Shown here: positions 300-46,300 of the stretch, in pieces | Layout of the letters: every line of letters begins with the position of its first letter | Numbering within the stretch: position 1 is the first letter of the stretch | Assembly: GCA_964471165.1 (NCBI GenBank) | Contig: CAYYEX010000005.1 | Location: 42,593 to 106,592, forward strand | Length of the DNA: 64,000 nucleotides | Direction: 5' to 3' | DNA from: an uncultured Candidatus Saccharibacteria bacterium | GTDB lineage: Bacteria; Patescibacteriota; Minisyncoccia; Phycocordibacterales; UBA2100 | Notes under the pieces: generated by a model | Told to the model about the DNA's origin: nothing | Databases searched by the model: none | What the model saw: only the letters and a program-made list of their open reading frames with translations | Position numbers and translations under genes: made by a program

Positions 300-1388
300 A
301 TGTGTCGTGAGGTCTGGCACGCGCAGGTCAACCGTTTCGACAGAAATATGACAAACCGAATTTCACTGCAACATAACGAAAGCTACTGGTTGCTCGATGA
401 TGTACTCATGAAAGCGTACACAGCAGATGCAACTGCGGTCTTTTCTCGCTACCCAGATTACGCAGAGCTCACCGAGCTCCTTGCTGAATACGTAGGAGTT
501 ATTCGAGAAAATATTCTGGTCACGAGCGGCTCAGATGCTGCCGTGCGTTTGATTGCGGAATTAGAGCACGAATCGGGTAATAAAGTGTTGCTCCCCGTGC
601 CGTCTTTCTACGGGTATGAAAAGATTTTTTCGCAAATCGGGCTTGATTTTGACACGGTGTCTTTCACGGAAGAAATGGGAGTGTTTACATTTCCACTCGA
701 TGCTGCACGAACACTCATTCAGAGCGGCGCATACTCGGCACTCTTTATTTGCCAGCCAAATAACCCGCTTGGTTCTGCACTGTCAGAAGAAACAATCAAT
801 ACGCTCATAACGCTGTGCGGCAACTGCGGCGTCCGCTTGATTATCGATGAGGCATACTTTGAATTTCTTGGGCGCACTTCGGTATCAGAAATTTCACAGC
901 AAAACATCGTAATTTTGCGAACACTCTCAAAGTCACTCGGCTTGGCGGGAGCGCGCGTCGGTTATGTGTGTGCAAACTCTGCCTATCTGAAGCTGCTCTC
1001 TGCAAGAATGCTGCCATGGTCGGTAGCGCATCCGTCTGTCTACGCTGCTGTCGCCGGATTGAGACAGATTGCGCATGTGCGCACGCGGATGGAAGCGGTC
1101 ATACACGAACGCGCAGTGTTTCTCGGCGCCTTACGACAGGTACCGGGCGTTCACGCCTATCCATCTGAAACGAACTTCATACTTTCTCGCGTTGATAATG
1201 CACAAAATGTAGCTGCCGCTCTCAAAGAAAAGGGGATAGATGTGGCACTGTGTTCTTGGATGTCGAACGATACCGACGCCAGAGCGCTACTTTCCGACAC
1301 AATCCGGATGGCGGTACCTTCGCCCAGTGACCGAGACAGGGTCATTGCGACACTTGAAGAGGCGGTCGCAGGCACTAGACAAATGTAG
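300..1388 (+). CDS. Class I/II pyridoxal-phosphate aminotransferase, histidinol-phosphate/aromatic aminotransferase (HisC) family
   Basis: 362-aa ORF; motif LSKSLGLAGARVGYV matches the HisC-family PLP-lysine region (KSFGLAGLRVGY). A TATAAT box at 296-301 overlaps the first ATG, so the true start may be a downstream Met. Confidence 0.75.
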   Translation: MCREVWHAQVNRFDRNMTNRISLQHNESYWLLDDVLMKAYTADATAVFSRYPDYAELTELLAEYVGVIRENILVTSGSDAAVRLIAELEHESGNKVLLPVPSFYGYEKIFSQIGLDFDTVSFTEEMGVFTFPLDAARTLIQSGAYSALFICQPNNPLGSALSEETINTLITLCGNCGVRLIIDEAYFEFLGRTSVSEISQQNIVILRTLSKSLGLAGARVGYVCANSAYLKLLSARMLPWSVAHPSVYAAVAGLRQIAHVRTRMEAVIHERAVFLGALRQVPGVHAYPSETNFILSRVDNAQNVAAALKEKGIDVALCSWMSNDTDARALLSDTIRMAVPSPSDRDRVIATLEEAVAGTRQM

Positions 1389-1414
1389 AATAAGGTGGTA
1401 CTATACAAACATCT

Positions 1415-2956
1415 ATGAAATCGCACAAAGCGAAGTCCGCGATTACCAGCAAGAAAGACGCGGCTCTCCAGCGTCTCTCGATGTTTCTGCCCTCACAAAA
1501 GGCAACGTCCGCACACTGGTCAAAAATGCAAGCCGACTACATGGTCGATGCATTTAAAAGCGCTGCAAAGCACGTACCTGCGTACCGCTCATTCCTCAAG
1601 GAGCGCGGTGTTATGGCAAAGGACATAAAATCCGTTGCGGACATGAAAAAGGTGCCGCCCACATCAAAAAAGAATTATTTACGCAGTCACCCGTGGGAAG
1701 ACTTGTGTATGCCGGGCTCTCTTGCGGGCACACAGCTCGTTCTCACCGCAACCTCTGGCTCAACGGGCGAACCGTTCTATTTTCCACGCACGGATGTTGT
1801 TGAGGAGCAGTCGTACATCTATCACCGCACGTTTCTAAAGAACAGCGGACTCGACCCCCAGGAGCCCACGCTCGTAATCGTGGCATTCGGAATGGGTGTG
1901 TGGATTGGCGGACTTATTACATACGAGGCTTTCAACCGCATCTCCCAGCGCGATTTCCCGCTTACTCTTCTCACCCCAGGTGTAAACAAGCATGAAATTT
2001 ACGCGGCACTGCGCGAAATTGGGTCTCGATACACGCAGGTAATTCTTTGTGGCTATCCTCCGTTTGTAAAAGACATCATCGACGATGGTAAGGGAAACGG
2101 CGTGGACTGGAAACAGTTCGACATGCGAATCGTGTGTGCGGCCGAAGGTTTTTCCGAAGACTTCCGTGATTACCTCGTAACAGAGGCTCACATGACGAAT
2201 CGGTATCGCGACATCATGAATATCTACGGCAGCGCGGAGCTTGGCACAATGGCTACGGAGACCCCTCTTGCTGTTTTGGTTCGAGAACTCAGTCTCAAAA
2301 ACCCCGTACTGTTTTCAAAGTTGTTTGGGGAGGCAACGCGTTTGCCGACACTTGCGCAATACATTCCATCATTCGTTAGTTTCGAAGCGGTAGATAATCG
2401 TATTTACTGTACCTCCGGCAATGTGTTACCGATGATTCGCTATGAAATTGGTGATCACGGTGGCGTGATGACATATGCAGAGCTCAAAAATATCTGCGCG
2501 TCAGAGGGAGTTGACCTCAAGGCTGAAGCAAAGAAGGCGGGTATTACCGATACGGTCAAAGAACTACCGTTTGTCTATGTGTATGAACGCGCCGATCTTT
2601 CTACAAAACTTTACGGTGCAATTATTTACCCAGAACACATTAAGCACGGGCTGATAATCAAGAGTCTGCACAAGGAAGTAACTGGCAAGTTTACAATTGC
2701 AACTAAGAATGACGAAAACCAGGATGAATACCTTGAGGTAAACGTTGAGTTACAACCCAAGGTGCAACCCTCGGAAGACCTCAAGGAGCGTGTCACACAG
2801 GCCATCAATGAAGCGCTTATCGCAAAGAGTGCAGAGCACCGAAACAACTCGCTCTCGCTCGGGGAGCGTGTAATTCCTCGCGTTACATTCTGGGAGCATA
2901 ACCACGCGGAACATTTCCCGGTGGGTGCAAAACACCGCTGGGTAAAGAAGAAATAA
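1415..2956 (+). CDS. Adenylate-forming enzyme, phenylacetate-CoA ligase (PaaK)/coenzyme F390 synthetase family
   Basis: 513 aa; adenylation motif TSGSTGEPFYFPRT; N-terminal PaaK-like region ending VPPTSKKNYLR; starts 27 nt after the upstream gene. Confidence 0.75.
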   Translation: MKSHKAKSAITSKKDAALQRLSMFLPSQKATSAHWSKMQADYMVDAFKSAAKHVPAYRSFLKERGVMAKDIKSVADMKKVPPTSKKNYLRSHPWEDLCMPGSLAGTQLVLTATSGSTGEPFYFPRTDVVEEQSYIYHRTFLKNSGLDPQEPTLVIVAFGMGVWIGGLITYEAFNRISQRDFPLTLLTPGVNKHEIYAALREIGSRYTQVILCGYPPFVKDIIDDGKGNGVDWKQFDMRIVCAAEGFSEDFRDYLVTEAHMTNRYRDIMNIYGSAELGTMATETPLAVLVRELSLKNPVLFSKLFGEATRLPTLAQYIPSFVSFEAVDNRIYCTSGNVLPMIRYEIGDHGGVMTYAELKNICASEGVDLKAEAKKAGITDTVKELPFVYVYERADLSTKLYGAIIYPEHIKHGLIIKSLHKEVTGKFTIATKNDENQDEYLEVNVELQPKVQPSEDLKERVTQAINEALIAKSAEHRNNSLSLGERVIPRVTFWEHNHAEHFPVGAKHRWVKKK

Positions 2957-2977
2957 CGGTATACTAAAGGCCATCCT

Positions 2978-4159
2978 ATGGAAGGCCTACCGGAGAAGCT
3001 TCAAGAAATGCGCGCTCGCCCCATACCGGAGCGCCCGCGCTTTTTTGATATCAAAACAGATTCGGCTGAGCTATCTGCACTTATTGATTCTGGAGCACTC
3101 TTGCGTGTTTCTGATGACTACGAGGAAGCGTCTCGTGAGCTTTTTGCTATACAGAATCCGACACTCGTGTATGCACCGGGGTTTGAGGACGCATTCCAAA
3201 AACACTACACAATTCTTACAAGCAATGTGCCCGAGATACTCGGACGCTGGGTATATTTTCCCTGGAACGGCACACTGTGCCATATCCTTGCAGAAGCCGA
3301 TTACTTTCGCGTCCGAACGGCGCGCAATCGGAATTTGATAACAGAGGTAGAACAGGAGCGATTCTACAATTCGACAATCGGTATTGCAGGGCTCTCGGTG
3401 GGTTCGAGTGTTGCATTCAGTATTGCGCTACAGGGCGGCGGAAAGAAACTCAAACTTGCTGACATGGATTATTTGGCGCTTTCAAACACGAATCGTGTTC
3501 TCTCGGGTGCCCCGGAGTTGGGCTCGCTCAAGGTATCTATGGCAGCCAGACGTATTTACGAAATGAATCCCTATGCAGAAATCGAGCTGTTTCCACAAGG
3601 ATTACAACCTGAAAACATAGCAGCATTTTTCGACGGACTCGATATTGTTATCGACGAGCTTGATAACCTAGCTGTAAAATTTTTAATTCGAGAGCATGCA
3701 AAAAAGAACCACATTGCGGTAGTAATGGGCGCCGACAACGGGGACAATGCGGTTATTGATATTGAACGCTACGATGTGGACCCACAGCCACCATTCTTTC
3801 ATGGTCGGATGGGGAATGTTTCCTACGATTCACTCAAGGCGCTGGATAAGTTCGGTATCGGCAAAACTATTACGCAACACATCGGTCCAGAGAATGTAAC
3901 GATGCGTATGCAGGAATCTTTGATGGAAATGGGCAAAACCATTGTTTCCTGGCCGCAATTGGGCGGTGCTGCGCTCATCAACGGGGCAGCGGTTGCATAC
4001 TGCGTACGAAAGATTCTCAACGGGGAGAAGCTCGAGTCGAATCGCGCACTCGTATCGGTTGATGAAAAATTAGTTCCCGACTTTATGTCAGATGAGCAAA
4101 AAAAGGAGCGGACTGAAACCGCGCACGCATTTGCTGCCCGATTCGGCATCACACTATGA
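2978..4159 (+). CDS. E1-like/ThiF-MoeB family protein with degenerate nucleotide-binding glycine loop and ~130-aa N-terminal extension
   Basis: 393 aa; Rossmann-like segment IGIAGLSVGSSVAFSIALQGGGKKLKLADMDY resembles ThiF/MoeB/E1, but the GxGxxG motif is degenerate (GIAGLSVGS). 22-nt gap to the upstream gene and 4-nt overlap with the downstream gene. Confidence 0.6.
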   Translation: MEGLPEKLQEMRARPIPERPRFFDIKTDSAELSALIDSGALLRVSDDYEEASRELFAIQNPTLVYAPGFEDAFQKHYTILTSNVPEILGRWVYFPWNGTLCHILAEADYFRVRTARNRNLITEVEQERFYNSTIGIAGLSVGSSVAFSIALQGGGKKLKLADMDYLALSNTNRVLSGAPELGSLKVSMAARRIYEMNPYAEIELFPQGLQPENIAAFFDGLDIVIDELDNLAVKFLIREHAKKNHIAVVMGADNGDNAVIDIERYDVDPQPPFFHGRMGNVSYDSLKALDKFGIGKTITQHIGPENVTMRMQESLMEMGKTIVSWPQLGGAALINGAAVAYCVRKILNGEKLESNRALVSVDEKLVPDFMSDEQKKERTETAHAFAARFGITL

Positions 4160-5208
4160 ACGAAGACATCCTGTTTGCGCTCTCCGCTGCAAACGCAGCA
4201 CCATCCGGTGAGAACAGTCAGCCGTGGCGCTTCATCGTACGTGAAGACAAGGTCGAGCTCTGGAACCGACCAGAGCGTGATCGTTCGCTGTATAACTGGC
4301 AACAAAGTGCCTCGTATGTTTCAAATGGTGCCGCCCTTGAAAACATGGTTATTGCGGCAAGCGCCCGTGGTCTCGCAACTGAGGTGGAGTATTTTCCACA
4401 AACGAGCACAGACCATGTGGCAACGGTTCGTTTTACGCGCGGTGCATCTCCGGACCCGCTTGCTGAGCCGGTTCTTAAACGAGCAACAAACAGAAAGCCG
4501 TATTCGAAAGAGTCGCTCACACCGGCACAAGCCGGCGCACTATCGGGTTGTTTTGAAAAGGATCTCTGTTCACTTCGACTGATTGGCGAGAGAGATGCAA
4601 TCAATCGCCTCGGACGCATTGGCTCCACGAATGAAGAGATTATGCTCACGAGCAAACAAATCCACTCGTTCTTCTTTGAGCACGTGAACTGGACTCCTGC
4701 CGAGGACGCAAAAAAAACTGTTGGCTTTTTCATAGATACACTTGAGTTGCCACCGCCGGCCCGCGTGATGTTTCGTTTGCTTCGTCGCTGGCCGGTTGCG
4801 TTGCTGCTTACCCGACTCGGGCTGCATCGTGTCATTGCCAAGGAGAACGGAGCGGTGAATGCCTCTGCCGCTGCTATTGGGATAGTTTCTGTGCGTTCGC
4901 TTGAGCCAACAGAGCTCGTACGAGCGGGTCGCGCAATCGAGCGCATCTGGCTTACAGCAACATCGCTTGGGCTTTCATTCCAGCCGCTCTCGGGCATGTT
5001 GTTTTTTGAGTTAATGCGGGCACACGGTGACGCGTCGAAATTCTCTGAAACACATGCAAAAATGATTGAAGAAGCATACGCCGAAGTCCGACGCATTTCC
5101 GGTTTCTCTGAGGGTTCAATCGTCTTTATGTTCCGCACCGGAATAGGGGAGCCCCCGACAGCACGCTCATCTCGCTTTACGCTTGAACGCACAATGCAGG
5201 CTGAGTAA
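4156..5208 (+). CDS. Nitroreductase-superfamily protein, apparently two tandem nitroreductase-like halves (SagB/McbC-type dehydrogenase-like)
   Basis: 350 aa; N-terminal APSGENSQPWRF motif typical of the FMN nitroreductase fold; a second basic motif KRATNRKPY is further in; about twice the size of single-domain nitroreductases. Confidence 0.65.
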   Translation: MNEDILFALSAANAAPSGENSQPWRFIVREDKVELWNRPERDRSLYNWQQSASYVSNGAALENMVIAASARGLATEVEYFPQTSTDHVATVRFTRGASPDPLAEPVLKRATNRKPYSKESLTPAQAGALSGCFEKDLCSLRLIGERDAINRLGRIGSTNEEIMLTSKQIHSFFFEHVNWTPAEDAKKTVGFFIDTLELPPPARVMFRLLRRWPVALLLTRLGLHRVIAKENGAVNASAAAIGIVSVRSLEPTELVRAGRAIERIWLTATSLGLSFQPLSGMLFFELMRAHGDASKFSETHAKMIEEAYAEVRRISGFSEGSIVFMFRTGIGEPPTARSSRFTLERTMQAE

Positions 5209-6809: not shown

Positions 6810-7793
6810 GTGCCTATGGCTCGATTACTGACGGGGCTCCAGCCCTCGGGAACACTTCATATCGGTAACTATCTTGGCGCACTACGCCCGTTCGTCGAAT
6901 TATCGAAAAGCGGGGAATACGAACATATCTTCCTGATGGTGGTGGATTACCATGCGCTTACATCGCTCAAAAATCCTCGGGAACTCAAACAGAACATCAT
7001 TTCCGTCGTAGCCGACTACGTGGCCGCCGGAATCGACCCAAACAAAGCAATCATATTTAAGCAATCCGACGTGCCACAGCACACTGAGCTGGCCTGGATA
7101 TTTAGTTGCCAAATGAGCACCTCGTTTCTCGAGCTTGGACATGCCTTCAAGGACAAGGTAGCAAAGGGAATAGATTCAAATGTCGGATTGTTCACATATC
7201 CGCTTTTGATGGCCGCTGATATTCTGCTCTACGACGCAACCGATATTCCGGTTGGTGAGGACCAACGCCAGCACATTGAGTACACGCGCGAAATCGCTGC
7301 GAAATTCAATATCAATTATCCTGGCCGTTCCCGCATCTTTAATGAGAATGTAAAGGAAAGAATCTTCGAAGGAACGGGCATCATTCCCGGAGTTGATGGC
7401 GCAAAAATGAGCAAAAGCTATGGCAACACTATTCCACTTTTTGCCACAGATGCGGAGATTCAACAGGCGGTTATGAGTATCAAAACTGGGTCAGAAGCTA
7501 TGGGTTCATCGCTTCCTGTTGATGATACGGTGTTGAAACTCTTTAAACACTTTGACCCAGAAGGGGCTGCTGCACTCGCTGGACGCTACCAGGCCGGTGC
7601 AGTTGGTTACAAGGAAGCAAAGGAAATACTCGCAAAAGCAATCATTACGGCGACGCATGACATGCGAGTGAAGCGACGCGATATTACAACAGAACAGGTG
7701 GAAGATATTCTTAAAAAAGGAAAAACGAAGGCGCGCGCGTTTGCACGAAAGAAAATGGACCTCGTACATCGCCGTATCGGAGTTGAAGTCTAA
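6810..7793 (+). CDS. trpS: Tryptophanyl-tRNA synthetase
   Basis: HIGH-type motif TLHIGNYLGA, KMSKS motif present, 327 aa. A TATATT -10 box sits 8 nt upstream of the ATG, so likely leaderless. Confidence 0.9.
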   Translation: MPMARLLTGLQPSGTLHIGNYLGALRPFVELSKSGEYEHIFLMVVDYHALTSLKNPRELKQNIISVVADYVAAGIDPNKAIIFKQSDVPQHTELAWIFSCQMSTSFLELGHAFKDKVAKGIDSNVGLFTYPLLMAADILLYDATDIPVGEDQRQHIEYTREIAAKFNINYPGRSRIFNENVKERIFEGTGIIPGVDGAKMSKSYGNTIPLFATDAEIQQAVMSIKTGSEAMGSSLPVDDTVLKLFKHFDPEGAAALAGRYQAGAVGYKEAKEILAKAIITATHDMRVKRRDITTEQVEDILKKGKTKARAFARKKMDLVHRRIGVEV

Positions 7794-7803
7794 ACACAAA
7801 CAC

Positions 7804-9159
7804 ATGGAACGAATACTCATTACAGATTTAGGGGGTCGCACCGGCGAAACAGTGCTCATAAAGGGCTGGGTTTCGGTGCGCCGCGACCAGGGCAAAATGG
7901 TTTTTTTTGATTTCCGGGATCGTTCTGGCTCCGTGCAGGGTGTAGTGCTCCCAAACTCGGCAGCAATTGAACTCGCAAAAGAAATAAAAATCGAATACGT
8001 TGTTGCTGTAACGGGCATTGTTAATCAGCGGCCAGAGAAAAATCGCAATGCCAAGGTGCAAAACGGCGATATTGAACTCGAAGTTACCGGGCTAGAGGTA
8101 CTTGCGGCTGCGGAACCGCTTCCGTTTGATATGTCGGAGAGTGGATACAATGTAGACCTCACAACGGAACTCGACCACCGAGCACTCACGCTTCGCCATC
8201 CGCGCCTACAATCAATTTTCAAAGTACAGGCGGTAATCATTGACTCGTTCCGTGAGTATATGAAGCAGCAGGACTTCTTTGAGTTTCAAGCTCCCGCAAT
8301 AGTTCCAGCAACCGCCGAGGGGGGTGCCGAGGTTTTCCAGGTGCAATATTTTGACAAGCAAGCGTATCTTTCGCAGTCACCACAACTCTACAAACAGATT
8401 GTTATGACAGCGTTTGAACGCGTGTTTTCGGTCAACAAAGTGTTTCGCGCCGAGCCATCGTCCACGACACGCCACCTCACTGAAATAGTGTCTTTGGATG
8501 CAGAAATGGCATTCATAGATTCGTGGACCGATGTGCGCGATATGTCGGAGAGCACGGTGCGATATATTCTTGAGCAAGTTGCAGAACGCTGTGCGAAAGA
8601 TTTGGAATTCTTGGATGCGACGCTTCCGGTAATGATAGATAAGACGCCAACACTCTCACTTGCCGAGGCACAAGAGAAAATCCACTCAGTAACCGGCCGC
8701 GACGTCCGCGGAGAGAAGGACCTCAATCCGGAAGATGAGCGTCAACTATGCGAAATTATCAAAAACGAGACAGGCTCCGACTTTGTATACGTATATGGAT
8801 ACCCGACGCGACAGAAGCCATTCTATGTATTCCCGAACCCTGAGAATCCTGAAGTAAACGAGGGGATGGATTTGTTGTGTCGCGGGGTTGAATGGCTCTC
8901 CGGTGGCCGACGCATCAATGATTACAAGCAGCTTTTAGAGCACGTTGCAGTTTGGGGGCTCGACGCATCGAAGGTGGAAATGTTTCTCGAGGCCTTTCGA
9001 CACGGAGTTCCGCCAGAAGGGGGATTTGCATTCGGTGCAGAGCGCATGACAATGCAGATTTTGGGACTCAAAAACATTCGTGAGGCGACGATGTTCCCGC
9101 GCGACATGAATCGCATAGACGCCCGACTCAACGAAGCAGTAGAGCCCGACAACTCGTAG
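7804..9159 (+). CDS. aspS: Aspartyl-tRNA synthetase, class II, archaeal/eukaryal-type (short form)
   Basis: N-terminal OB-fold anticodon-binding region (VLIKGWVSVRRDQGKMVFFDFRD); class II motif 2 FRAEPSSTTRHLTEIVSLDAEMAF; about 450 aa. The in-frame upstream ATG at 7741 overlaps trpS, so the start was placed at the ATG at 7804. Confidence 0.85.
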   Translation: MERILITDLGGRTGETVLIKGWVSVRRDQGKMVFFDFRDRSGSVQGVVLPNSAAIELAKEIKIEYVVAVTGIVNQRPEKNRNAKVQNGDIELEVTGLEVLAAAEPLPFDMSESGYNVDLTTELDHRALTLRHPRLQSIFKVQAVIIDSFREYMKQQDFFEFQAPAIVPATAEGGAEVFQVQYFDKQAYLSQSPQLYKQIVMTAFERVFSVNKVFRAEPSSTTRHLTEIVSLDAEMAFIDSWTDVRDMSESTVRYILEQVAERCAKDLEFLDATLPVMIDKTPTLSLAEAQEKIHSVTGRDVRGEKDLNPEDERQLCEIIKNETGSDFVYVYGYPTRQKPFYVFPNPENPEVNEGMDLLCRGVEWLSGGRRINDYKQLLEHVAVWGLDASKVEMFLEAFRHGVPPEGGFAFGAERMTMQILGLKNIREATMFPRDMNRIDARLNEAVEPDNS

Positions 9160-9164
9160 TTCGT

Positions 9165-9515
9165 ATGGGTGAATTGCGCACAAAGGAAACCGCAAAGCGA
9201 TATAAGGATGACATCGCAGCCGGTCTTCTTGCGGGCGAATGTGTCATCTGCAAAAAAGCACCTGTACAGGAGTTCAAATATTGGAAAATCGTTCACAACG
9301 ACTACCCGTATGACGCTGCATTTTCACAGCACGACATGATAGTGCCATTGCGACACGCCAATATAGACGGCGTTCTGCCGGAGGAATGGCAAGAGCTCAA
9401 TGAGATAAAGAGAACATACATTAACGAGCACTACGAGTGGACAATGGAATCGACGATTCGAAGACTATCCATTCCAGCACACTTCCATATGCATCTAGTT
9501 AACTCCCCGGACTAA
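9165..9515 (+). CDS. HIT (histidine triad) family nucleotide hydrolase/transferase-like protein
   Basis: 116 aa; C-terminal histidine triad HFHMHLV; fold-typical hydrophobic core. Confidence 0.65.
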   Translation: MGELRTKETAKRYKDDIAAGLLAGECVICKKAPVQEFKYWKIVHNDYPYDAAFSQHDMIVPLRHANIDGVLPEEWQELNEIKRTYINEHYEWTMESTIRRLSIPAHFHMHLVNSPD

Positions 9516-23469: not shown

Positions 23470-24015
23470 CTACCACTTACCCGTTTCGTTGCGAGCGCCG
23501 TCGCGGTAGGCCTCAATTCTGCGGCGGTTACCGGGTGAGAGCTCATCTGGCAGCGTGTCGATGTCAAACCACGAGCGCGCCATGATTTCCAAGTTGGGTC
23601 GCATCGCGAGAGAGCCGGTAAAATCTCCTGTGTAAAAGAAAGTAACGCGGTCGGTCTTCCCCATCGTTCCGGTATACGTGCCAATCTCGCCGGCAATGCT
23701 ATGTACCATAAGCCCCGTTTCCTCGCGCACTTCGCGAATCGCTGCTTGCTCAGCGGTCTCACCTTTGTCCACACCGCCGCCAGGCAAGGTCCACGCCCAC
23801 GGCGCGTACCAATGGCTGACTAATAGAACCCGCCGCTCATCCAAAACAAGTATGCGAACTCCGTGCGATTCTTTATCGCCACGCATCTGCCCAACCGCGT
23901 AGCGACCCACGTGTGCGGTATTGATAATCAAAAGAGACAGGTACATCCCGAAGCGACGAAGTATTTTCATGGGTATTTTTTTAGCGAAGCATGAGCTCCA
24001 TTTGCAGCTCATCAA
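23470..24015 (-). CDS. NUDIX hydrolase
   Basis: Nudix box [24 protein letters not shown]; the start is probably an internal Met (MKILRRF... or MYLSLL...). Confidence 0.8.
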
Positions 24016-24490
24016 TATAGACGCCGTCTACAAATATCTCTTTCTTAAATAGTCCTACCTGATCGAATCCCATTTTTTCATACAGAGCGCGCGCTTCTGA
24101 TTGGGAAGCCGCAACGTTCAAACCAATCTTTATCACCTCCGGCCTTGTTTTTGCTTCGGCAATCACTCGTTCGAGCAATCCCCTACCCACTCCAAGTCCA
24201 CGGCACTCAGGAGCAACATACACGCTATACAAATGCATAGTGTGAGCGGATTTAGGGTTATCACCTTGCACAAAACTGAGCATACCCACAAACACCCCGT
24301 CTTTTTCAGCGGTGATGTATTGTCTTTTTTCCAATCGGGAGCGCCAGGTTTCTTCTGTGCTTTCTTCCTCTTCTTCGAGCGTCCTTCCAAATGCAATCGG
24401 ATGCTCTTTCACCGAACGCACCCGCAAATCTTTTAAGGCTTTCCACTCATCAGCGCCGGGACTTCGATATGTGATATCGCCGGCACTCAT
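23981..24490 (-). CDS. GNAT family N-acetyltransferase
   Basis: Acetyl-CoA binding motif [20 protein letters not shown]; 169 aa. Confidence 0.8.
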
Positions 24491-24493
24491 GAG

Positions 24494-25084
24494 CTATTTA
24501 AACGGTATCTCAAACTCCATGAATTCTGGAAGAAGTTTTCGGCCGTAGAGTAATCGCGACACCACTTCCGCGTGGCAGAGTGCCCCCGTAAGCGCGTTGT
24601 GAGGATTTGGCTCTTCCGGAATGCCGCAATAAATCAAAACCGCATCGAGGTTGAGTGCGCTTCGGCGGTGCTGCACCGGAGGTTGTTTGCCGTGGGTCAC
24701 CATGTGCATATATGCGAGTGTGTGTGTATCGATAGTGCGGAATGCAAACGGCCAATCAGTGTGGCCAGCACGCTCCGCCGCCTCGCGCAAAAAGTCGCGG
24801 TCGAACGAAACGTTCTGTCCGGCAAATGTGCGCTCCTCCACTTTTTCGCTCCACTCTAAAAATGCATGTGTTAAATCGGCTTCGCTTGGTTTCGCTGGGT
24901 CCTTGATTTGCTCTTCGGTAAATCCGTTCACGCGCATGGCGTCCGGCATAATGTGTGCGCCCTCCCAAATACGACACTCCATGTAAAATCGGTTTTCCGG
25001 GTGCGCCAAGTCGAGTGCTCCCACACTCACGATTGAGTGTTTTTTTGCCTCTGTTCCAGAAGCCTCCACGTCTACAATTATCAT
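24494..25084 (-). CDS. DEDD-type 3'-5' exonuclease (DnaQ-like domain protein)
   Basis: Exo I motif MIIVDVEASGT; 196 aa. The promoter motif TATCTCACGGGGTATACT ends 6 nt upstream of the ATG. Confidence 0.7.
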   Translation of the reverse strand: MIIVDVEASGTEAKKHSIVSVGALDLAHPENRFYMECRIWEGAHIMPDAMRVNGFTEEQIKDPAKPSEADLTHAFLEWSEKVEERTFAGQNVSFDRDFLREAAERAGHTDWPFAFRTIDTHTLAYMHMVTHGKQPPVQHRRSALNLDAVLIYCGIPEEPNPHNALTGALCHAEVVSRLLYGRKLLPEFMEFEIPFK

Positions 25085-30487: not shown

Positions 30488-33388
30488 CTATTCTTCAACA
30501 ACGAAGTTCACGAGCTTTTTTGGTACCACTATTACGCGTTTGATTATCTTACCTGCGAGTCGCTCAGCAACAGTCTCCTTCGCCATAATTTCCAGAGCCT
30601 CTTTGTCGGTATCTTTTGAAGCAACGAAATCGCCTCGAAGTTTTCCGTTTATTTGTATTGCAATAGTCACCTCGTCAAACTCCAACTTTGTTTCATCAAA
30701 TCCGGGCCAGGCTTCCTTGTGAATTGAGGTGTCGTGTTTAAGAAAATCATGCCATAGCTCTTCGGTCATGTGCGGAGCAAATGGCGACAGAACACGAAGG
30801 AAATCCTCATACAACTCAACTGTTACGTTCTGCTCCTTATCCTCCATCAAGTTCAAAAGCGACATCATCTGACTAATAGCGGTATTAAATTTGAAAGACT
30901 CAATGTCTTCTCCTATCTTTTTAATCGCAATATTCATAGAGTTACTCATGTAGGGGGTGACTCCATTTTCGACGGATGTTGGCAGGACTTTGTCTGAAAG
31001 ACGCCACACTTTTTCAAGGAAGCGCCGTGAACCAATCATGCTTTGAGTATTCCACGCAATGGAGTCTTGGAATGGACCCATAAACATTTCATACACGCGC
31101 ATGGTGTCGGCGCCGTAGCTCTCCACGATATCGTCCGGATTAATCACGTTTCCGTATCGCTTACTCATCTTGCGACCGTCTTCGGCCATAATCAGCCCCT
31201 GGTGACGCAACTTGAGGAATGGCTCGTCGAAGTTCAAATATCCCATGTCTCGCAGTGCCTTGGTGAAGAAACGGGCATACAGCAGATGCAGCACCGTATG
31301 CTCTGCCCCACCGATATACAAATCAACCGGGAGCCAATCTCGCAACGCTTCGGGCGATGTAAACTCCTGGTCATTGTGTGGGTCTGCAAAACGAAAGAAA
31401 TACCACGATGAGCATGCAAAGGTGTCCATCGTATCAATTTCCGGTCTCCAACCTTTGCCGAAGACTCGTTCCGTTCGCTCGAACAATTCTTTTGAGCTTC
31501 CTAGTGGCGACGTACCTTTCGGCAGGTACTCAACATCCGTGGGCAAAAGCCACGGCAAGTGCTCAGCGGGAACTGGGTGCGGCTTCCCCTCTGGGTCGTA
31601 CACAATTGGAATCGGGGTGCCCCAGTAGCGCTGACGCGAAATAAGCCAGTCGCGCATCTTGTACGTTTTCTTTACGCGCCCAAACTTTTCTGTAATCGCG
31701 CGCTTTGCTTCCTCAGTATCCAAACCATCGTATGCACCGGAATTAATAAGAATACCGTCGCCGACAAAGATAAATTGTTCGTTGTCGATAAAATTCAATG
31801 TGTAGTCCCCTTCGACAACTGTGAAGTGATTATTCAGCTCTTTGCGCGTCTTCCAGACAACCTCGTGCAGTGCAGCCTCCTTTTCTGATACTGGCTCCTG
31901 CTCAGTATCGATGAGTTCCAAGAAAACATAACGAAATCGAGCGCCGCGATTTTCTAGCTTTACGCGATGGAAGAAAAGCGTGTTGATTGCAAAGTCCATA
32001 TTGCGCACCAGACGCAGATTCTTGTAGCCGGTTTCCTCTCGCACCTCTCGCATCGCGGCCTCAGCCACATTCTCCCCCGCATCAATGCCGCCCGTTACTA
32101 AACCCCGCATGTTGATGCCGTTTTTCCAACTGATGGTGAGGTACGTATCATCTGCCGGATTGCGAACAATCACAGCGACCGCATCACGCTTGATGATAGG
32201 TAGCTCAGGCTTTATTGGTGAGTCCGAACTATCGCGAAATATCGGTTCGACAACCTGTCGAATTGGGAGGTTGTATTTAAGTGCAAACATGTGGTCACGT
32301 TCGTCGTGCGCCGCAACTGCCATGATGGCGCCTGTACCGTAGTGAGCAAGAACGTAGTCGGCAACAAAGAGCGGAATCTTTTCTCCGTTTGCGGGATTGA
32401 TAGCCACTACACCTTTTAGCTCCACTCCAGTTTTCTCTTTGTCGGCCGACAAGCGGTCTATATCAGTTTTCCTTCTCGATGCTGCCACATAATCTGCGAC
32501 CTCGTCGTTATTCTTAAGAACTGTTTTGTGTCCGAGTGCGAGGGTTACCCATTGGTGCTCGGGAGCAAGAACAAGGTAGGTTGCACCGAACAAAGTGTCA
32601 GGCCTGGTCGTGAATACAGTGATATGAGCACGCTTGCCCGTATCATCGGTACGTGCATTTACTGTCTCGTCTCCAAAATCAAGATAGAAATCGAGTTCAG
32701 CGCCTTCCGAGCGACCAATCCAGTTTCTTTGGTTAATCTTGGTCGACTCTGGCCAATCAATTGTGTCGAGCTTGTCGGCGAGCTCATCTGCGTAATCTGT
32801 TATTTTGAAAAACCACTGTTCCAAATCCTTTTTTTCCACAACAGCTCCCGAACGCTCTGCTGTGCCATCGGGCAGCACCTGCTCATTGGCAAGCACGGTC
32901 TGGTCAACGGGGTCCCAGTTTACGAGCGCCTTCTTTTTGTACACAAGCCCCCTTTCAAAAAACTTGGTGAACAGCCACTGTGTCCAGCGGTAGTAATCTG
33001 GTCGATGGCTCCCAATCTCACGATCCCAATCGTATGAAAGTGCCAGGTTTGAAATCTGCGACTTGAATGTCGCAATGCTTTCATCAGTCGTCTGCTGCGG
33101 AGGCGTTCCTGTTTTAATCGCGTAGTTTTCTGCCGGAAGTCCGAATGCATCCCACCCCATTGGGTGCAGCACCCGGTGACCCTCCATGCGCTTTTTTCGA
33201 GCCACGATGTCAGAGGCAATGTAGCCCTTTGGGTGTCCGACATGGAGCCCGGCACCGGATGGGTACGGAAACATGTCGAGTACGTAGTATTTCGGCTTCG
33301 AGGTGTCAGCGTCAGTTTTATAGGCGCCGTCTTTGGCCCACTGTTTCTGCCATTTCTGCTCGACTTTCTTATGGTCGTACGACTTCAT
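30488..33388 (-). CDS. leuS: Leucyl-tRNA synthetase with an inserted NUDIX hydrolase domain
   Basis: 966 aa; HIGH (PSGAGLHVGHPKGY); editing-domain TTRPDT motif; GTGAIMAVAAHDERD; KMSKR (RKMSKRYGN). About 135 extra residues lie between ...LPIRQVVEPIF and GILINSGAYDGLD, and they contain a canonical Nudix box [23 protein letters not shown]. Confidence 0.9.
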   Translation of the reverse strand: MKSYDHKKVEQKWQKQWAKDGAYKTDADTSKPKYYVLDMFPYPSGAGLHVGHPKGYIASDIVARKKRMEGHRVLHPMGWDAFGLPAENYAIKTGTPPQQTTDESIATFKSQISNLALSYDWDREIGSHRPDYYRWTQWLFTKFFERGLVYKKKALVNWDPVDQTVLANEQVLPDGTAERSGAVVEKKDLEQWFFKITDYADELADKLDTIDWPESTKINQRNWIGRSEGAELDFYLDFGDETVNARTDDTGKRAHITVFTTRPDTLFGATYLVLAPEHQWVTLALGHKTVLKNNDEVADYVAASRRKTDIDRLSADKEKTGVELKGVVAINPANGEKIPLFVADYVLAHYGTGAIMAVAAHDERDHMFALKYNLPIRQVVEPIFRDSSDSPIKPELPIIKRDAVAVIVRNPADDTYLTISWKNGINMRGLVTGGIDAGENVAEAAMREVREETGYKNLRLVRNMDFAINTLFFHRVKLENRGARFRYVFLELIDTEQEPVSEKEAALHEVVWKTRKELNNHFTVVEGDYTLNFIDNEQFIFVGDGILINSGAYDGLDTEEAKRAITEKFGRVKKTYKMRDWLISRQRYWGTPIPIVYDPEGKPHPVPAEHLPWLLPTDVEYLPKGTSPLGSSKELFERTERVFGKGWRPEIDTMDTFACSSWYFFRFADPHNDQEFTSPEALRDWLPVDLYIGGAEHTVLHLLYARFFTKALRDMGYLNFDEPFLKLRHQGLIMAEDGRKMSKRYGNVINPDDIVESYGADTMRVYEMFMGPFQDSIAWNTQSMIGSRRFLEKVWRLSDKVLPTSVENGVTPYMSNSMNIAIKKIGEDIESFKFNTAISQMMSLLNLMEDKEQNVTVELYEDFLRVLSPFAPHMTEELWHDFLKHDTSIHKEAWPGFDETKLEFDEVTIAIQINGKLRGDFVASKDTDKEALEIMAKETVAERLAGKIIKRVIVVPKKLVNFVVEE

Positions 33389-33456: not shown

Positions 33457-34413
33457 CTATTTAACGAGAACGTCTCCTTTGGGAAACACCGGGTATCGCT
33501 CCGGGTCGATTGTTCTCTCAAAGCATGTCTGCCCCACTCCGTGTGACCACGTAACGTTGTCTGGGCCGTAATTAGAAACAGGCTTCGGTGCATTCGGTCC
33601 ATCTCCAATGGAAGCCGCATTGAACGTGGCACACAATTCAAACGAGTACGGAGCCTTGGTGATTCGGTAGCCGTAGTCTGTGCCCGACTGTGGATCCTTC
33701 GGAATGTACATGTAGCTGTTGAGTGGGTCAGCAACTTCGGCAAGAGAAACAGGAAGTTTGCCCTTTGTCTGGTAGTAGTTGATAACCTGCTGCTGAATCT
33801 CCATGAGGTTCTGTTGCTTCGTTGCATCGAATCTGGTCAGGCGTACTGCTGCCGGTGAACCGATGATAAGGAATCCGGAAACAATGGTTAGCACAACGAG
33901 CGCGCACGCAGCAATACCAACTGAGAGCGCGCGACTCGGAAACTTAATCCAGTAGCCCCAGTAGTCTGCAAGGAAGTGCATAAACACTGCACTCGCCACC
34001 AGGAGCACGGTTGCCACCTTGAGGATAAATCGTGTCGTAACCTCTCCGCCAAGGAAGTAATTTATGAGTACTATTAAATCGGTTGCCATCGAAAACCCGG
34101 CGATAAATAGCGTCAGGAACAACGCCCAGCGTCGCACCCACAAATCTGCTTTCGCTTGGTCCTTTGTAATATCGCGTCTAATGAGTTGCAGTAAAATTAT
34201 TGCAAGTGGCGCGAGCACGATGAGACTCGCCATCGCGAGTCGTATCGATCCTGAATATGGGTCGTAATAATAATCCTGTTCCAGAGCATCTGGAAACGCC
34301 TGGTTAATGTACTCGAATATAAGGGTAATAAACGCCACTACGCTCCCATAGAGCGCAACCATGGCTCCCGCCCAAAGAAAAAAGTCTTTTGGGGTGACTT
34401 TGTGTGTATTCAT
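33457..34413 (-). CDS. Hypothetical polytopic membrane protein with C-terminal extracytoplasmic domain
   Basis: Start placed at MNTHKVTPKDF (34413), preceded by TTATAGT 6 nt upstream; 5-6 TM helices then a soluble tail of about 110 aa. The tracked ORF extends to 34545, overlapping the divergent yidD-like gene. Confidence 0.6.
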   Translation of the reverse strand: MNTHKVTPKDFFLWAGAMVALYGSVVAFITLIFEYINQAFPDALEQDYYYDPYSGSIRLAMASLIVLAPLAIILLQLIRRDITKDQAKADLWVRRWALFLTLFIAGFSMATDLIVLINYFLGGEVTTRFILKVATVLLVASAVFMHFLADYWGYWIKFPSRALSVGIAACALVVLTIVSGFLIIGSPAAVRLTRFDATKQQNLMEIQQQVINYYQTKGKLPVSLAEVADPLNSYMYIPKDPQSGTDYGYRITKAPYSFELCATFNAASIGDGPNAPKPVSNYGPDNVTWSHGVGQTCFERTIDPERYPVFPKGDVLVK

Positions 34414-34492
34414 GACATGACTATAACGTAATAGGTGCCCATTGACATACACCTGAGACTGTTCCATTATCTTGCCAGCCAAGGAGACAACA

Positions 34493-34876
34493 ATGAGCAC
34501 TGCTGCTCTGAACACCACCGTCAGCCACGTCGCCATTGAAGCCATACGTCTGTATCAGCGTTGGGTATCGCCCCGTAAGGGGTTCTGCTGTGCGCACAAT
34601 ACGCTTCATGGCCAAGGAAGCTGCTCCGGCTTCGGGGTCAAAGTCTTGCAAGTGAACGGCTTTGCTACGGCGCTCACGTTGATGCGCTTGAGAATACGTC
34701 AGTGCTACCTGGCGAACCTGGTCCTAGAGGAGGATCGACGTAAAAAGCGGCAGCGTCAGATTAAAAAAGCCGCCGGCATTGGCGCTGTAAATGTGGCGGA
34801 GGTGGGACTAGATGTCGCTGCAACCGGCATGGAAGCAGCAGATTGCTGCGGGGGTATCCTAGGCGCTCTCGCCTGA
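34493..34876 (+). CDS. yidD: YidD-like membrane protein insertion efficiency factor (DUF37) with C-terminal extension
   Basis: IEAIRLYQRWVSPRKGFCCAHNTLHGQGSCSGFG matches the YidD core (RFYQ..ISP....C.F.P.CS.Y). AAGGAG RBS 8 nt upstream of the ATG at 34493. Confidence 0.65.
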   Translation: MSTAALNTTVSHVAIEAIRLYQRWVSPRKGFCCAHNTLHGQGSCSGFGVKVLQVNGFATALTLMRLRIRQCYLANLVLEEDRRKKRQRQIKKAAGIGAVNVAEVGLDVAATGMEAADCCGGILGALA

Positions 34877-42438: not shown

Positions 42439-44239
<1,801 letters not shown>

Positions 44240-44243
<4 letters not shown>

Positions 44244-44839
44244 ACAAACTCTTTTAGCAGTATCTCTCTGGCCTGTTTCAAGGCTCGGCCGCGATGACTG
44301 ACCGTATCGATGAGCTCGTCATCGAGTTCGCCAAACGCCTTCCCTAAATCATTGGAAATAAACAACTGATCAAAACCGAATCCTTTTTCACCATGCGGTT
44401 CAGTGGCAAGGACACCCTCGGTAACCCCATATCCAAAACGGACCTTGTCGCTACGCGGGTCGTATATCGCAATCACGTCCCGGTATCTGCATGTGCGCTT
44501 ATCCGCGGGCACATCTTTCATCATCTCTAGAAGCTGAACGAGTCTTTCCGCGCGATTCCCCGTGAATGAATACGCAGTCTGAACACCCATAGCTTCCGGA
44601 AACGCATCGATCTCAAGACCAGAGTCGTCGGCAACAGTAATCATCTGCGAATGCTTTCCATATACGAACGCCTTGATAAGCGCATTCGCTTCGTACGTAG
44701 TACCGGGCTCAGCAACGTTGAATCCGTCAGGCAGCGTCAAGTCATTGAGTGTCCGTATTTGAAATGGAATGTCTTTCAGTCCCGCAATAAGCTGCGGGAT
44801 TTTTCCCTTATTTGCAGTCGCTAAAAGGAGCTCCCTCAT
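44240..44839 (-). CDS. rdgB: Non-canonical purine NTP pyrophosphatase (RdgB/Ham1/ITPase family)
   Basis: ATANKGKIPQL, ADDSGLEIDAF, LEMMKDVP and TVSHRGRAL motifs align along the whole length with E. coli RdgB. Confidence 0.85.
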
Positions 44840-44844
44840 ACAAA

Positions 44845-45288
44845 TTATTTATTGTCGAACCCGTAGTTACTGAACGGCTCACCGTCCGCGATGCATTTGA
44901 GCGCCTGCTGAACGTACGGAATTGTATTCGATGGCAAGTCTGTGGCGGCGTACCACCAGAGGTCCGAGCACTTTTCTGGTTCCATGTTTTTAAGTTCCCC
45001 CGTCCAGGAATCCGCGGTAATGTACACGTCGAAATACGTTCTGTCTGGGTACTGTCGCTGCATCACATGAACAATCTCTAAGTTGCTCTCGGAAATGTCG
45101 AGATTCGTCTCTTCCATCACTTCACGAATAAGCGCCTGTTCAGCGGTTTCTCCGCGCTCAATGTGCCCCGAAACGAGTCCATAGTTTCCATCTTCGTGCC
45201 CGGTATTCTTGCGCTGTGAAAGCAATACCTGGTCTTCGTATCTTAGGACCAGAAACACTGCACCAAAAAACAGAAACTTATCAGACAT
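44845..45288 (-). CDS. NUDIX hydrolase, inside the atp operon
   Basis: Nudix box SGHIERGETAEQALIREVMEETNL; MEPEKCSDLWWY motif is paralogous to GEPEKCSNVGWF in the NUDIX at 43821..44243. 3-nt gap to atpG. Confidence 0.8.
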   Translation of the reverse strand: MSDKFLFFGAVFLVLRYEDQVLLSQRKNTGHEDGNYGLVSGHIERGETAEQALIREVMEETNLDISESNLEIVHVMQRQYPDRTYFDVYITADSWTGELKNMEPEKCSDLWWYAATDLPSNTIPYVQQALKCIADGEPFSNYGFDNK

Positions 45289-45291
45289 GGC

Positions 45292-46206
45292 TTATCGCAT
45301 TGCTTCCATGCCAGATGTAATTTCAGATACTTCGCGCGTAATTGCAGCCTGACGAACTTTGTTGAAAAGTCGTGTGAGATTGTGTGCCATTTCTTTTGCC
45401 TTGTCGGTTGCGCTCTTCATCGAAACCATTCGCGCAGAGTGCTCGGATGCCTTGCTCTCGAGGAGCCCGTGGTACACAGCAATGTTGAGCAGCTTCGGAA
45501 GAAGTACCGCGAGCACCGCGTCTGCATCCGGTTCAATTTCATAGGAAGCAGGTGCAGCACTTACTTCTCCGGACGGGGCGTATTTTCCACGTGCTGGTCG
45601 GATTCCCTTTACGGTCTCGCGCATGAGTTCCGCAGAAATAGGAACGATTTGCCGCACGATTGGTTCCTGCTCAAACGTGGAAACGAAGTTTTGGTACGCA
45701 ATGATTGCCGTACCAATTTCGCTCGATTGATGCCACGAAAGAATGAGGTCAGTCACCGAACGCATTTCAGACTCGGTTACGTCGTCACGCTTGTTGAGCT
45801 CGCGCAGACGCACATCGTAGCCGCGATTGTGAAAATGGTCCCCTCCGCGCCGGCCAATGCACGCCATCACGATGTCCTCTTTTGAAAGTCCTCGAGCCGC
45901 AATCTCATTCTCCACCTTGCGAATCACTGCGCTATTGAGCGAGCCTGCGAGACCTTTGTCTGAGGTTACAACGATGAATGCAGTTTTCCCTGCGCGCGCA
46001 CTCATGAGTGCGTGACGCGACATGTCTGCAGTACTTGAAATGCGCTCAAGCACCGTGAGTGCCGCAGCGGCATAGGAGCGGCCAGAAAGCGCACGCTCCT
46101 GAGCCTTGCGCATCTTTACCGCCGACACCGCCTCCATGGCATGCGTAACAGTTCCCGTTTTTTTGTACGAGATGATTTTTGATTTGATTGCTTTCAGGTT
46201 CGCCAT
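45292..46206 (-). CDS. atpG: F1 ATP synthase gamma subunit
   Basis: MANLKAIKSKIISYKKTGTVTHAMEAVSAVKMRKAQE N-terminal helix; start placed at MANLK (46206). The tracked ORF reads through the upstream heptad repeats. Confidence 0.9.
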   Translation of the reverse strand: MANLKAIKSKIISYKKTGTVTHAMEAVSAVKMRKAQERALSGRSYAAAALTVLERISSTADMSRHALMSARAGKTAFIVVTSDKGLAGSLNSAVIRKVENEIAARGLSKEDIVMACIGRRGGDHFHNRGYDVRLRELNKRDDVTESEMRSVTDLILSWHQSSEIGTAIIAYQNFVSTFEQEPIVRQIVPISAELMRETVKGIRPARGKYAPSGEVSAAPASYEIEPDADAVLAVLLPKLLNIAVYHGLLESKASEHSARMVSMKSATDKAKEMAHNLTRLFNKVRQAAITREVSEITSGMEAMR

Positions 46207-46300
46207 AGGTAGGTTGTAGGTTTTAGGTTGTAGGTTGTAGGTTGTAGTGATTCGTATTTCATTCGCTCGCACTATTCCCAATCACCTATTCCCTATACCC
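46207..46300. repeat. TAGG-based heptad tandem repeats (TAGGTTG x5 on plus, then TAGGGAA/TAGGTGA/TTGGGAA on minus) in the atpA-atpG spacer
   Basis: 46207-46247 reads taggttg taggttt taggttg taggttg taggttg tag. 46272-46300 is the reverse complement of tagggaa taggtga ttgggaa tag. The second block overlaps the atpA stop. Confidence 0.8.

Follow-up and report, generated by a model that had tools for sequence, protein, structure and literature searches.

The leuS gene in a 64-kb stretch of DNA from an uncultured Candidatus Saccharibacteria bacterium (64,000 nucleotides of contig CAYYEX010000005.1, hereafter the window) encodes a leucyl-tRNA synthetase (LeuRS) in which a catalytic-looking Nudix hydrolase domain is inserted into the CP1 editing domain, and we find this architecture to be widespread among bacteria of the Candidate Phyla Radiation (CPR). 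Aminoacyl-tRNA synthetases are among the best-studied of all enzymes, and CP1 is a drug target. A catalytic-looking Nudix domain inside CP1, conserved over much of the bacterial tree, lies outside the textbook picture of these proteins. An earlier reading of the window's sequence (the original prediction) had not known the fusion from any characterized LeuRS, and indeed no paper describing it was found: a search of 8 million full-text papers, which leaves most subscription journals out of reach, turned up no description of the LeuRS–Nudix fusion, of the fusion of the same domain to prolyl-tRNA synthetase (ProRS) reported here, or of the decorated LeuRS of CPR bacteria.

Our analysis also goes beyond the original prediction in several respects. 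The fusion is lineage-wide in the CPR, the module is readily gained and lost and can be present in multiple copies, other hydrolases are inserted alongside it, and it recurs in ProRS. Positions are given below in window coordinates for nucleotides and in LeuRS numbering for residues, and those of individual features are collected in Table 1.

The insert and its host enzyme

The leuS product is read from a single open reading frame (ORF), and its 966 residues include the long insertion that had been proposed for it: 162 residues separate the segments PIRQVVEP and GILINSG, compared with 0–33 in close relatives without the insert and ~15 in LeuRS from Thermus thermophilus (residues 363 to 379). 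The insert comprises a Nudix domain of ~140 residues flanked by linkers of ~15 and ~9 residues. The Pfam NUDIX family (PF00293) matches residues 400–522 (nucleotides 31823–32191) with an E-value of 1.7e-14 and a score of 54.4 bits (gathering threshold 21.1), and the Nudix box fits the family consensus. The earlier claim that a real Nudix domain, its catalytic motif complete, has been grafted into LeuRS is thus borne out. The last position of the box is a Tyr instead of Ile, Leu, or Val, which is also the case for 88 of 98 aligned relatives. The box had been located correctly, except that the range given for it, nucleotides 32024–32089, is one codon short and omits the first Gly (32090–32092). 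Nor do the extra residues match any module already known from LeuRS, an alternative that had been raised for them. The leucine-specific domain in particular can be ruled out, because the insert maps to T. thermophilus residues 363–379 and that domain is absent from the window enzyme, where residues 736–739 (nucleotides 31157–31180) stand opposite T. thermophilus residues 580–636.

The host is a bacterial-type LeuRS, which scores 956 bits against the leuS_bact equivalog model TIGR00396 (cut-off 548) and contains both the HIGH and the KMSKS motif. It aligns with T. thermophilus LeuRS (PDB 1h3n) with an E-value of 4e-208 in three blocks, namely residues 1–381 with 1–363, 543–736 with 379–580, and 739–964 with 636–876. 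The match to the editing-domain family PF13603 (E = 6.9e-55) falls into two stretches parted by the insert. In an alignment of 83 LeuRS sequences, H49, G51, and H52 of the HIGH motif are invariant, as are T260, T261, R262, D264, T265, G351, G353, H361, and D362 of the editing motifs. Since the HIGH, KMSKS, and editing motifs are all present and invariant among these relatives, the host LeuRS looks fully functional, that is, able both to charge tRNA and to edit.

An AlphaFold model of the full-length enzyme, based on an 83-sequence alignment, has a predicted local distance difference test (pLDDT) score of 91.4 and a predicted template modeling (pTM) score of 0.82. Strands 380–385 and 545–547 bracket the insert in this model, which places the domain within a hairpin of the C-terminal portion of CP1. 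As modeled, the Nudix domain is a self-contained unit that has been spliced into a surface β-hairpin of the editing domain. The hairpin that follows the insert is retained by free-standing proteins consisting of a CP1 fragment and a Nudix domain (described below), and is co-deleted in many LeuRS that have no insert.

When modeled alone, the insert reaches a pLDDT of 92.2 and is predicted to form the α/β/α sandwich of Nudix enzymes with the box on a loop-helix-loop. The model matches hundreds of Nudix enzymes in the PDB at a Foldseek probability of 1.0, including 2azw, NudI, RppH, and Ap4A hydrolases, and the structural comparison scores are 13.9 for AvrM14, 13.5 for RppH, and 12.9 for the Caenorhabditis elegans Ap4A hydrolase. 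At the level of sequence profiles, AvrM14 gives the sole whole-domain alignment among solved proteins (E = 5e-9). We regard the Nudix fold, as modeled, as certain. The insert does not reach any of the curated NCBIfam Nudix models (MutT, NudI, or other), the best matches being the RppH models with E-values of about 1e-5. A Nudix component of a defense system was considered and ruled out: a search of the PADLOC-DB defense models returned no family at E ≤ 0.01 for either the insert or one of the free-standing mini-proteins (P0250).

Across 95 inserts, E448, E452, K477, and W512 are present without exception, E451 in 88, E504 in 87, and H508 in 82. The mean pairwise identity is 38% for the Nudix domain, 25% for the linkers, and 59–68% for the LeuRS body. 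Such a pattern is as expected for a domain that is kept for catalysis and not for packing. Within the box, the Glu of Gx5E (E439) and the Arg of REU (R447) vary in concert, with both present in 64 inserts, neither in 29, and a mixture in 2; these counts are used qualitatively, as a Fisher test ignores phylogeny. Replacement of E439 by Gln, Met, or His is paired with replacement of R447 by Met, Ala, Lys, or Thr. Because the two positions change together, the inserts fall into two types, of which the window insert represents the canonical one.

Distribution, turnover, and other hosts

Of the 120 closest LeuRS, 95 contain a Nudix domain of 155–164 residues at exactly the same site, 24 hold just 0–33 residues there, and one (P0051) has a HAD domain. 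The close relatives are plainly named "leucine--tRNA ligase" in the databases, and their sources are given as Candidatus Paceibacterota, Kaiserbacteria, Adlerbacteria, Minisyncoccia, and Patescibacteria. Judged by these names, the window belongs to a Paceibacteria-like member of the Patescibacteria. Our sequence sets consist of cluster representatives. While a search with the single insert sequence recovered just 2 proteins, owing to word-index limits, a profile of the inserts run against 1.84 billion cluster representatives gave 175 matches at E ≤ 1e-30, and those inspected (the best 150) are mostly embedded in LeuRS. A scan of GTDB species-representative genomes with a tighter insert alignment yielded at least 180 confirmed loci, of which 80 were kept; in ~73 of these 80, the domain lies inside leuS. 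The loci span Paceibacterota, Parcubacteria, Moraniibacteriota, Taylorbacteria, Kaiserbacteria, Buchananbacteria, Uhrbacteria, Gracilibacteria, and Peribacteria, as well as many metagenome-assembled genomes (MAGs) labeled Saccharibacteria; where a short contig bears a MAG label such as "Gammaproteobacteria", that label is not to be relied on. The lineage survey that had been suggested for LeuRS thus identifies the Nudix insert as a lineage trait of CPR bacteria.

In a neighbor-joining tree of 732 LeuRS body columns, built without support values, the insert-less enzymes are dispersed at no fewer than ten places among the insert-bearing ones. P0025 (942 residues, with the Nudix domain) and P0100 (776 residues, without it) are 92.9% identical in the LeuRS body. 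Similarly, P0005 and P0015 differ by an α/β-hydrolase at 92.6% body identity, and P0030 and P0048 by a Ham1 domain at 89.9%. Because such sister pairs, 90–93% identical, differ in their insertions, the turnover of inserted modules is recent as judged from these comparisons. Likewise, since the Nudix module can be present in one sister enzyme and missing from another whose LeuRS body is 93% identical, it is evidently accessory, with aminoacylation and editing predicted to be independent of it.

The α/β-hydrolase and Ham1 domains occupy a second insertion hotspot in CP1, referred to here as site B. In close relatives of the window enzyme, this site holds an α/β-hydrolase, Ham1, or an extra Nudix domain of 160–210 residues (Pfam matches in P0011, P0048, P0064, and P0083). 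Within the clade of the window enzyme itself, a site B of 17 residues, as found here, and one of ~181 residues (an α/β-hydrolase) alternate between near-identical sisters, for which reason the 17-residue loop may be either a deletion scar or a landing pad.

Further copies of the Nudix clade are found elsewhere in some LeuRS, including in the C-terminal half, such that there are one to three copies per enzyme overall. P0110 (1477 residues) has three Nudix stretches and an α/β-hydrolase, and a stop-to-stop LeuRS ORF of 1735 residues (locus L026, 1223–6427) has three copies of the same Nudix clade together with further stretches without assignment. P0123 and P0124 resemble these two proteins. An extra insertion of 130–230 residues is also seen in the C-terminal half of LeuRS, roughly at the position of the leucine-specific domain, in P0153, P0162, P0165, P0209, P0229, and P0248 and at loci L006, L027, L031, L061, and L066.

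The module is not confined to LeuRS. P0256 is a ProRS with a Nudix domain of the same clade between its anticodon-binding and C-terminal domains, and four similar ProRS (P0269–P0272) are 61–74% identical to it, the five spanning 641–674 residues. The Nudix domains of these enzymes score 135–184 bits against the LeuRS-insert profile, and their insert-less neighbors (70–80% identity) are named Nanoarchaeota or Woesearchaeota. By these sequence criteria, the same Nudix clade recurs in ProRS of DPANN-like archaea. Both the ProRS-borne and the free-standing members hold the clade signature, which consists of the box, F/Y-x-x-H-K-x-x-N-R, and H-x-x-x-W. All of these domains belong to a distinct Nudix clade, whose members lie almost exclusively within aminoacyl-tRNA synthetases or next to them. 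A host protein other than a synthetase was not recognized among the best 150 cluster representatives, a few N-terminal extensions being without identification.

Free-standing members come in several forms. P0122 is a complete gene product of 160 residues, 48% identical to the insert and encoded amid unrelated genes. Mini-proteins of ~280 residues join the C-terminal half of CP1 to the Nudix domain and to the hairpin that follows the insert in LeuRS; they have an intact box and another residue in place of the conserved editing Asp, and they lack the T-rich half of CP1. P0191 similarly combines a fragment of the ProRS anticodon-binding domain with the Nudix domain, although its gene may be partial. 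At locus L035, a mini-gene follows a complete, insert-less leuS after a gap of 94 nucleotides, both genes being on one strand. Its CP1 piece is closer to CPR LeuRS–Nudix proteins (43–45% identity) than to the adjacent leuS, and the mini-gene is therefore best described, from its sequence, as an excised LeuRS–Nudix module. No stand-alone copy of the clade was found within 10 kb of the insert-less leuS in L001 or L002. At L046, the mini-gene is part of a same-strand run of genes for DUF402, an APH-like kinase, MazG, the mini-protein, Ham1, Nudix, GNAT, a cell-wall hydrolase, and a second Nudix protein, and at L050 it is surrounded by genes for Ham1, a histidine phosphatase, GNAT, and an APH-like kinase. 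The neighborhood genes of L046 (MazG and Ham1) are without sequence-level conservation in L035 or L050.

Possible function and alternative readings

What could such a module do? We tentatively favor, at slightly less than an even chance, the view that it is an active small-nucleotide hydrolase tethered to a synthetase; its activity, its substrate class, and its coupling to the host are all aspects that we infer. A metal-dependent Nudix domain would then hydrolyze a small nucleotide, not RNA, in a form of synthetase-tethered "house-cleaning" whose likeliest substrates would be by-products of the dinucleoside polyphosphate type (ApnN, such as Ap4A) or closely related aberrant purine nucleotides. 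The source of ApnN would be the synthetases' own aminoacyl-adenylate, and the products of hydrolysis would be usable AMP and ATP.

The conservation of E448, E452, and E451 is compatible with divalent-cation-dependent hydrolysis of nucleoside diphosphate-X (NDP-X) compounds. Aminoacyl-tRNA synthetases are the main source of ApnN and Nudix enzymes its universal asymmetric degraders; because of this, and because ApnA hydrolases are among the best characterized structural neighbors of the insert, ApnN is the leading candidate. Small-nucleotide hydrolysis in general is indicated by the insertion of Ham1 and HAD domains in LeuRS and by the genes that neighbor the mini-genes of L046 and L050, and RNA binding is weakly disfavored by the acidity of the inserts, which have a mean net charge of −7 (95 sequences). 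F472 and F473 lie 17 and 18 positions beyond the box, where the clade consensus is F-Y-H, and they may recall the signature of ApnA hydrolases, in which a Tyr 16–18 positions past the box stacks on adenine. The original prediction had also envisaged proofreading of leucyl-adenylate. This finds no support, because leucyl-adenylate is an acyl-phosphate and not an NDP-X compound, and because the module has repeatedly been lost without loss of the editing motifs.

Several observations speak against a dedicated, synthetase-coupled hydrolase. About 30% of the inserts have both E439 and R447 replaced. The module is readily lost, as between P0025 and P0100, and unrelated hydrolases use the same CP1 platform, both of which would suit an insertion site that is merely permissive. 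The exclusivity of the clade to LeuRS partly follows from vertical descent, and LeuRS is not known to be among the strongest producers of Ap4A. A more far-reaching proposal, which is possible but which we would not bet on, is that the clade was recruited in CPR (LeuRS) and DPANN (ProRS) as a third hydrolytic activity built into synthetases, either to destroy Ap4A/ApnN at source or, alternatively, to repair or uncap bound tRNA, with the CPR LeuRS, in view of its Ham1, HAD, and α/β-hydrolase insertions as well, acting as a multi-enzyme quality-control hub and not as a plain synthetase.

The main rival explanation is that the module is a pure hitchhiker, an ordinary nucleotide-pool sanitizer (acting, for example, on oxidized or deaminated (deoxy)nucleoside triphosphates) that is functionally unrelated to LeuRS. 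The CP1 loops would simply tolerate insertions, and embedding in an essential, constitutively expressed gene would secure expression in a regulator-poor genome. This would account for the presence of four unrelated hydrolase types (Nudix, Ham1, HAD, and α/β-hydrolase) in the same two CP1 loops, for gain and loss between enzymes that are 90–93% identical and scattered over the tree, and for the free-standing relative amid MazG, Ham1, and Nudix genes. The window itself offers a similar case, in that a Nudix-Ham1-Nudix trio is embedded in the ATP-synthase operon between the gamma and beta genes, which are adjacent in the related genome L001. However, the second host protein is again a synthetase, namely ProRS, which is of a different class and from a different domain of life, one free-standing copy adjoins leuS, free-standing copies keep a synthetase fragment, and the best 150 cluster representatives include no recognized host of another kind. 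Overall, we consider a functionally unrelated passenger to be conceivable yet doubtful, and prefer the tethered hydrolase because the sole other recognized host is again a synthetase and because a free copy adjoins leuS.

An RNA-end enzyme seems improbable. Here, the domain would remove a 5′ triphosphate or an Np4N/NAD-type cap from tRNA-Leu or other RNAs, in the manner of RppH or a decapping Nudix enzyme, and CP1 would keep it near the acceptor end. Retention of the CP1 subdomain by the free-standing paralogs would fit such a role, as would the rank of RppH and AvrM14 as the best NCBIfam Nudix matches and the best whole-domain sequence match, respectively. Yet the insert scores just 24.6 and 24.0 bits against the RppH models NF001938 and NF001936, far below their cut-offs of 116 and 118, and does not belong to that family. 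Moreover, the inserts are acidic, neither the conserved editing Asp nor any of the T-rich half of CP1 survives in the mini-proteins, and the site of insertion in ProRS, between the anticodon-binding and C-terminal domains, is not an acceptor-end site.

We see an equally slender chance for a non-catalytic module, in which hydrolysis has been lost or is irrelevant and the Nudix fold modulates LeuRS as a nucleotide-binding sensor or as a structural or interaction domain. Nudix folds do serve elsewhere as ligand sensors, for example in NrtR, and the inserts that replace both E439 and R447, along with the 7 of 95 that replace E451, could be read in this way. Against this, E448 and E452 are never replaced, the box of the window insert is fully canonical, and the changes at E439 and R447 are strictly paired, as expected of a compensated structural pair and not of decay. 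Finally, an assembly chimera or mis-join that placed a Nudix gene inside leuS is effectively refuted: although the source is a metagenome-type contig, nothing was found to support an artefact, the reading frame is continuous with both junctions within a single hairpin, the GC content of the insert (0.45–0.52) is the same as that of the flanking gene, an identical protein is encoded on a 262-kb contig, and about a hundred independent contigs share the architecture, with ~95 other proteins drawn from NCBI, JGI, ENA, and Logan assemblies in addition to the ~73 species-representative genomes.

If the module does degrade the ApnN of its own host enzyme, it bears directly on the long-standing question of whether cells use Ap4A as a signal or must dispose of it as a by-product of damage, and provides a natural one-polypeptide system for addressing that question. 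If it is merely a passenger, it shows that ultra-small symbionts pack accessory house-cleaning enzymes into essential genes, and it marks two CP1 loops as tolerant of whole-domain insertion, which is useful for engineering. In either case, the near-identical enzymes with and without the module are ready-made controls.

Genomic surroundings and relation to known systems

The gene directly upstream of leuS encodes a DUF5671 membrane protein (33457–34545, minus strand). Because such a gene is also found directly upstream of the insert-less leuS in L001 (9041–9970), the two loci are syntenic. As the original prediction stated, the window contains three stand-alone NUDIX genes (Table 1). An origin of the insert from these was ruled out, since their likeness to it is confined to the box. 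A gene for GNAT neighbors both one of them (23470–24015) and the mini-genes of L046 and L050. At several loci labeled Saccharibacteria (L020, L044, L049, L070, L071, L074, and L077), an orthologous second Nudix gene of another clade (170–230 residues, 35–92% mutual identity) follows the Nudix-bearing leuS on the same strand at a distance of 0.7–1.8 kb. The HIT protein that had been noted beside aspS is indeed encoded next to an aspS-like gene and has an HFHMHLV motif, but it has no Pfam match even at E ≤ 0.1. In the whole 64-kb window, ARAGORN found no tRNA gene, and no Rfam family reached its gathering threshold.

Table 1. Coordinates of the features discussed, in window nucleotides unless a locus is named; residue numbers (aa) refer to the window LeuRS.
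Feature	Position	Strand	Basis or remark
leuS, complete bacterial-type LeuRS, 966 aa + stop	30488-33388	minus	single uninterrupted ORF
HIGH motif HVGH, aa 49-52, synthetic site	33233-33244	minus	sequence
CP1 editing domain, part upstream of insert, aa 221-382	32243-32728	minus	PF13603
Site B, second insertion hotspot, aa 239-255, GDETVNARTDDTGKRAH, 17-aa loop here	32624-32674	minus	relatives' insertions mapped after query aa 239-248
TTRPDT, T-rich editing motif	32594-32611	minus	sequence
GTG editing motif	32330-32338	minus	sequence
AHD editing motif	32303-32311	minus	sequence
Insert, aa 383-542: N-linker, Nudix fold, and first part of C-linker	31763-32242	minus	delimited against insert-less relatives, T. 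thermophilus LeuRS, and model secondary structure
N-linker of insert	32198-32242	minus	same delimitation
Nudix fold proper, aa 398-535	31784-32197	minus	
Nudix box, aa 433-455, with E439, R447, E448, E451, E452	32024-32092	minus	fits GX5EX7REUXEEXGU
K477	31958-31960	minus	clade-specific, outside box
E504	31877-31879	minus	clade-specific, outside box
H508	31865-31867	minus	clade-specific, outside box
W512	31853-31855	minus	clade-specific, outside box
C-linker (aa 536-544) and CP1 C-terminal strand and helix hairpin (aa 545-575, GILINSGAYDGLDTEEAK...), returning the chain to the catalytic core	31664-31783	minus	model
Second half of catalytic core, anticodon-binding domain, and C-terminal domain	30491-31663	minus	Pfam tRNA-synt_1, Anticodon_1
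KMSKR (KMSKS motif), aa 740-744	31157-31171	minus	sequence
Mini-gene, L035 (with leuS)	1154-4534		genome ~25% GC
Mini-gene, L046	3686-4573		genome ~25% GC
Mini-gene, L050	3683-4543		genome ~25% GC
aspS-like gene	7741-9159		window
"HIT protein" gene, downstream of aspS-like gene	9084-9512	plus	HFHMHLV motif at 9480-9500
NUDIX, stand-alone	23470-24015	minus	overlaps GNAT
GNAT acetyltransferase	23981-24490	minus	followed by exonuclease gene
RNase T-like exonuclease	24494-25084	minus	after GNAT
ATP-synthase beta	42439-43815	minus	window
Nudix, stand-alone	43821-44243	minus	trio between gamma and beta
Ham1	44240-44839	minus	trio between gamma and beta
Nudix, stand-alone	44845-45288	minus	trio between gamma and beta
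ATP-synthase gamma	45292-46281	minus	window

With canonical LeuRS, such as those from T. thermophilus (1h3n) and Escherichia coli (4aq7), the window enzyme has in common its overall makeup: the HIGH and KMSKS motifs, three editing motifs (T-rich, GTG, and Asp), an anticodon-binding domain, and a C-terminal domain. Compared with the T. thermophilus enzyme, it differs in having the 160-residue Nudix insert between residues 363 and 379 and an extra 13-residue loop opening CP1, and in having no leucine-specific domain. Going by its name, the NCBIfam family NF040702 (isoleucine--tRNA ligase, N-acetyltransferase domain-containing) likewise represents a class Ia synthetase with an added catalytic domain in one polypeptide, although there the host is isoleucyl-tRNA synthetase and the guest a GNAT domain; the window LeuRS, at 70 bits where the cut-off is 1999, is not a member.

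On the Nudix side, the flax rust effectors AvrM14-A and AvrM14-B (PDB 8dp8 and 8dp9) are close in fold, but these are secreted eukaryotic proteins with no synthetase context and only 17% identity to the insert. AvrM14 has been reported to decap mRNA. House-cleaning pyrophosphatases of nucleoside triphosphates, i.e., MutT-type Nudix enzymes, Ham1/RdgB ITPase, and MazG, are free-standing, whereas Ham1 is also found inserted in related LeuRS, and genes for MazG, Ham1, and Nudix proteins flank a free-standing member of the clade. The ApnA Nudix hydrolases (T. thermophilus Ndx1, Mycobacterium tuberculosis Rv2985, NUDT2, and the C. elegans and Aquifex enzymes) and RppH/NudH share with the insert the fold and, in all likelihood, the Nudix-box chemistry. 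However, the insert, known here from sequence and a model, is merely 16–21% identical to these enzymes, has its own invariant K477 and W512, and is embedded in a synthetase instead of being free-standing.

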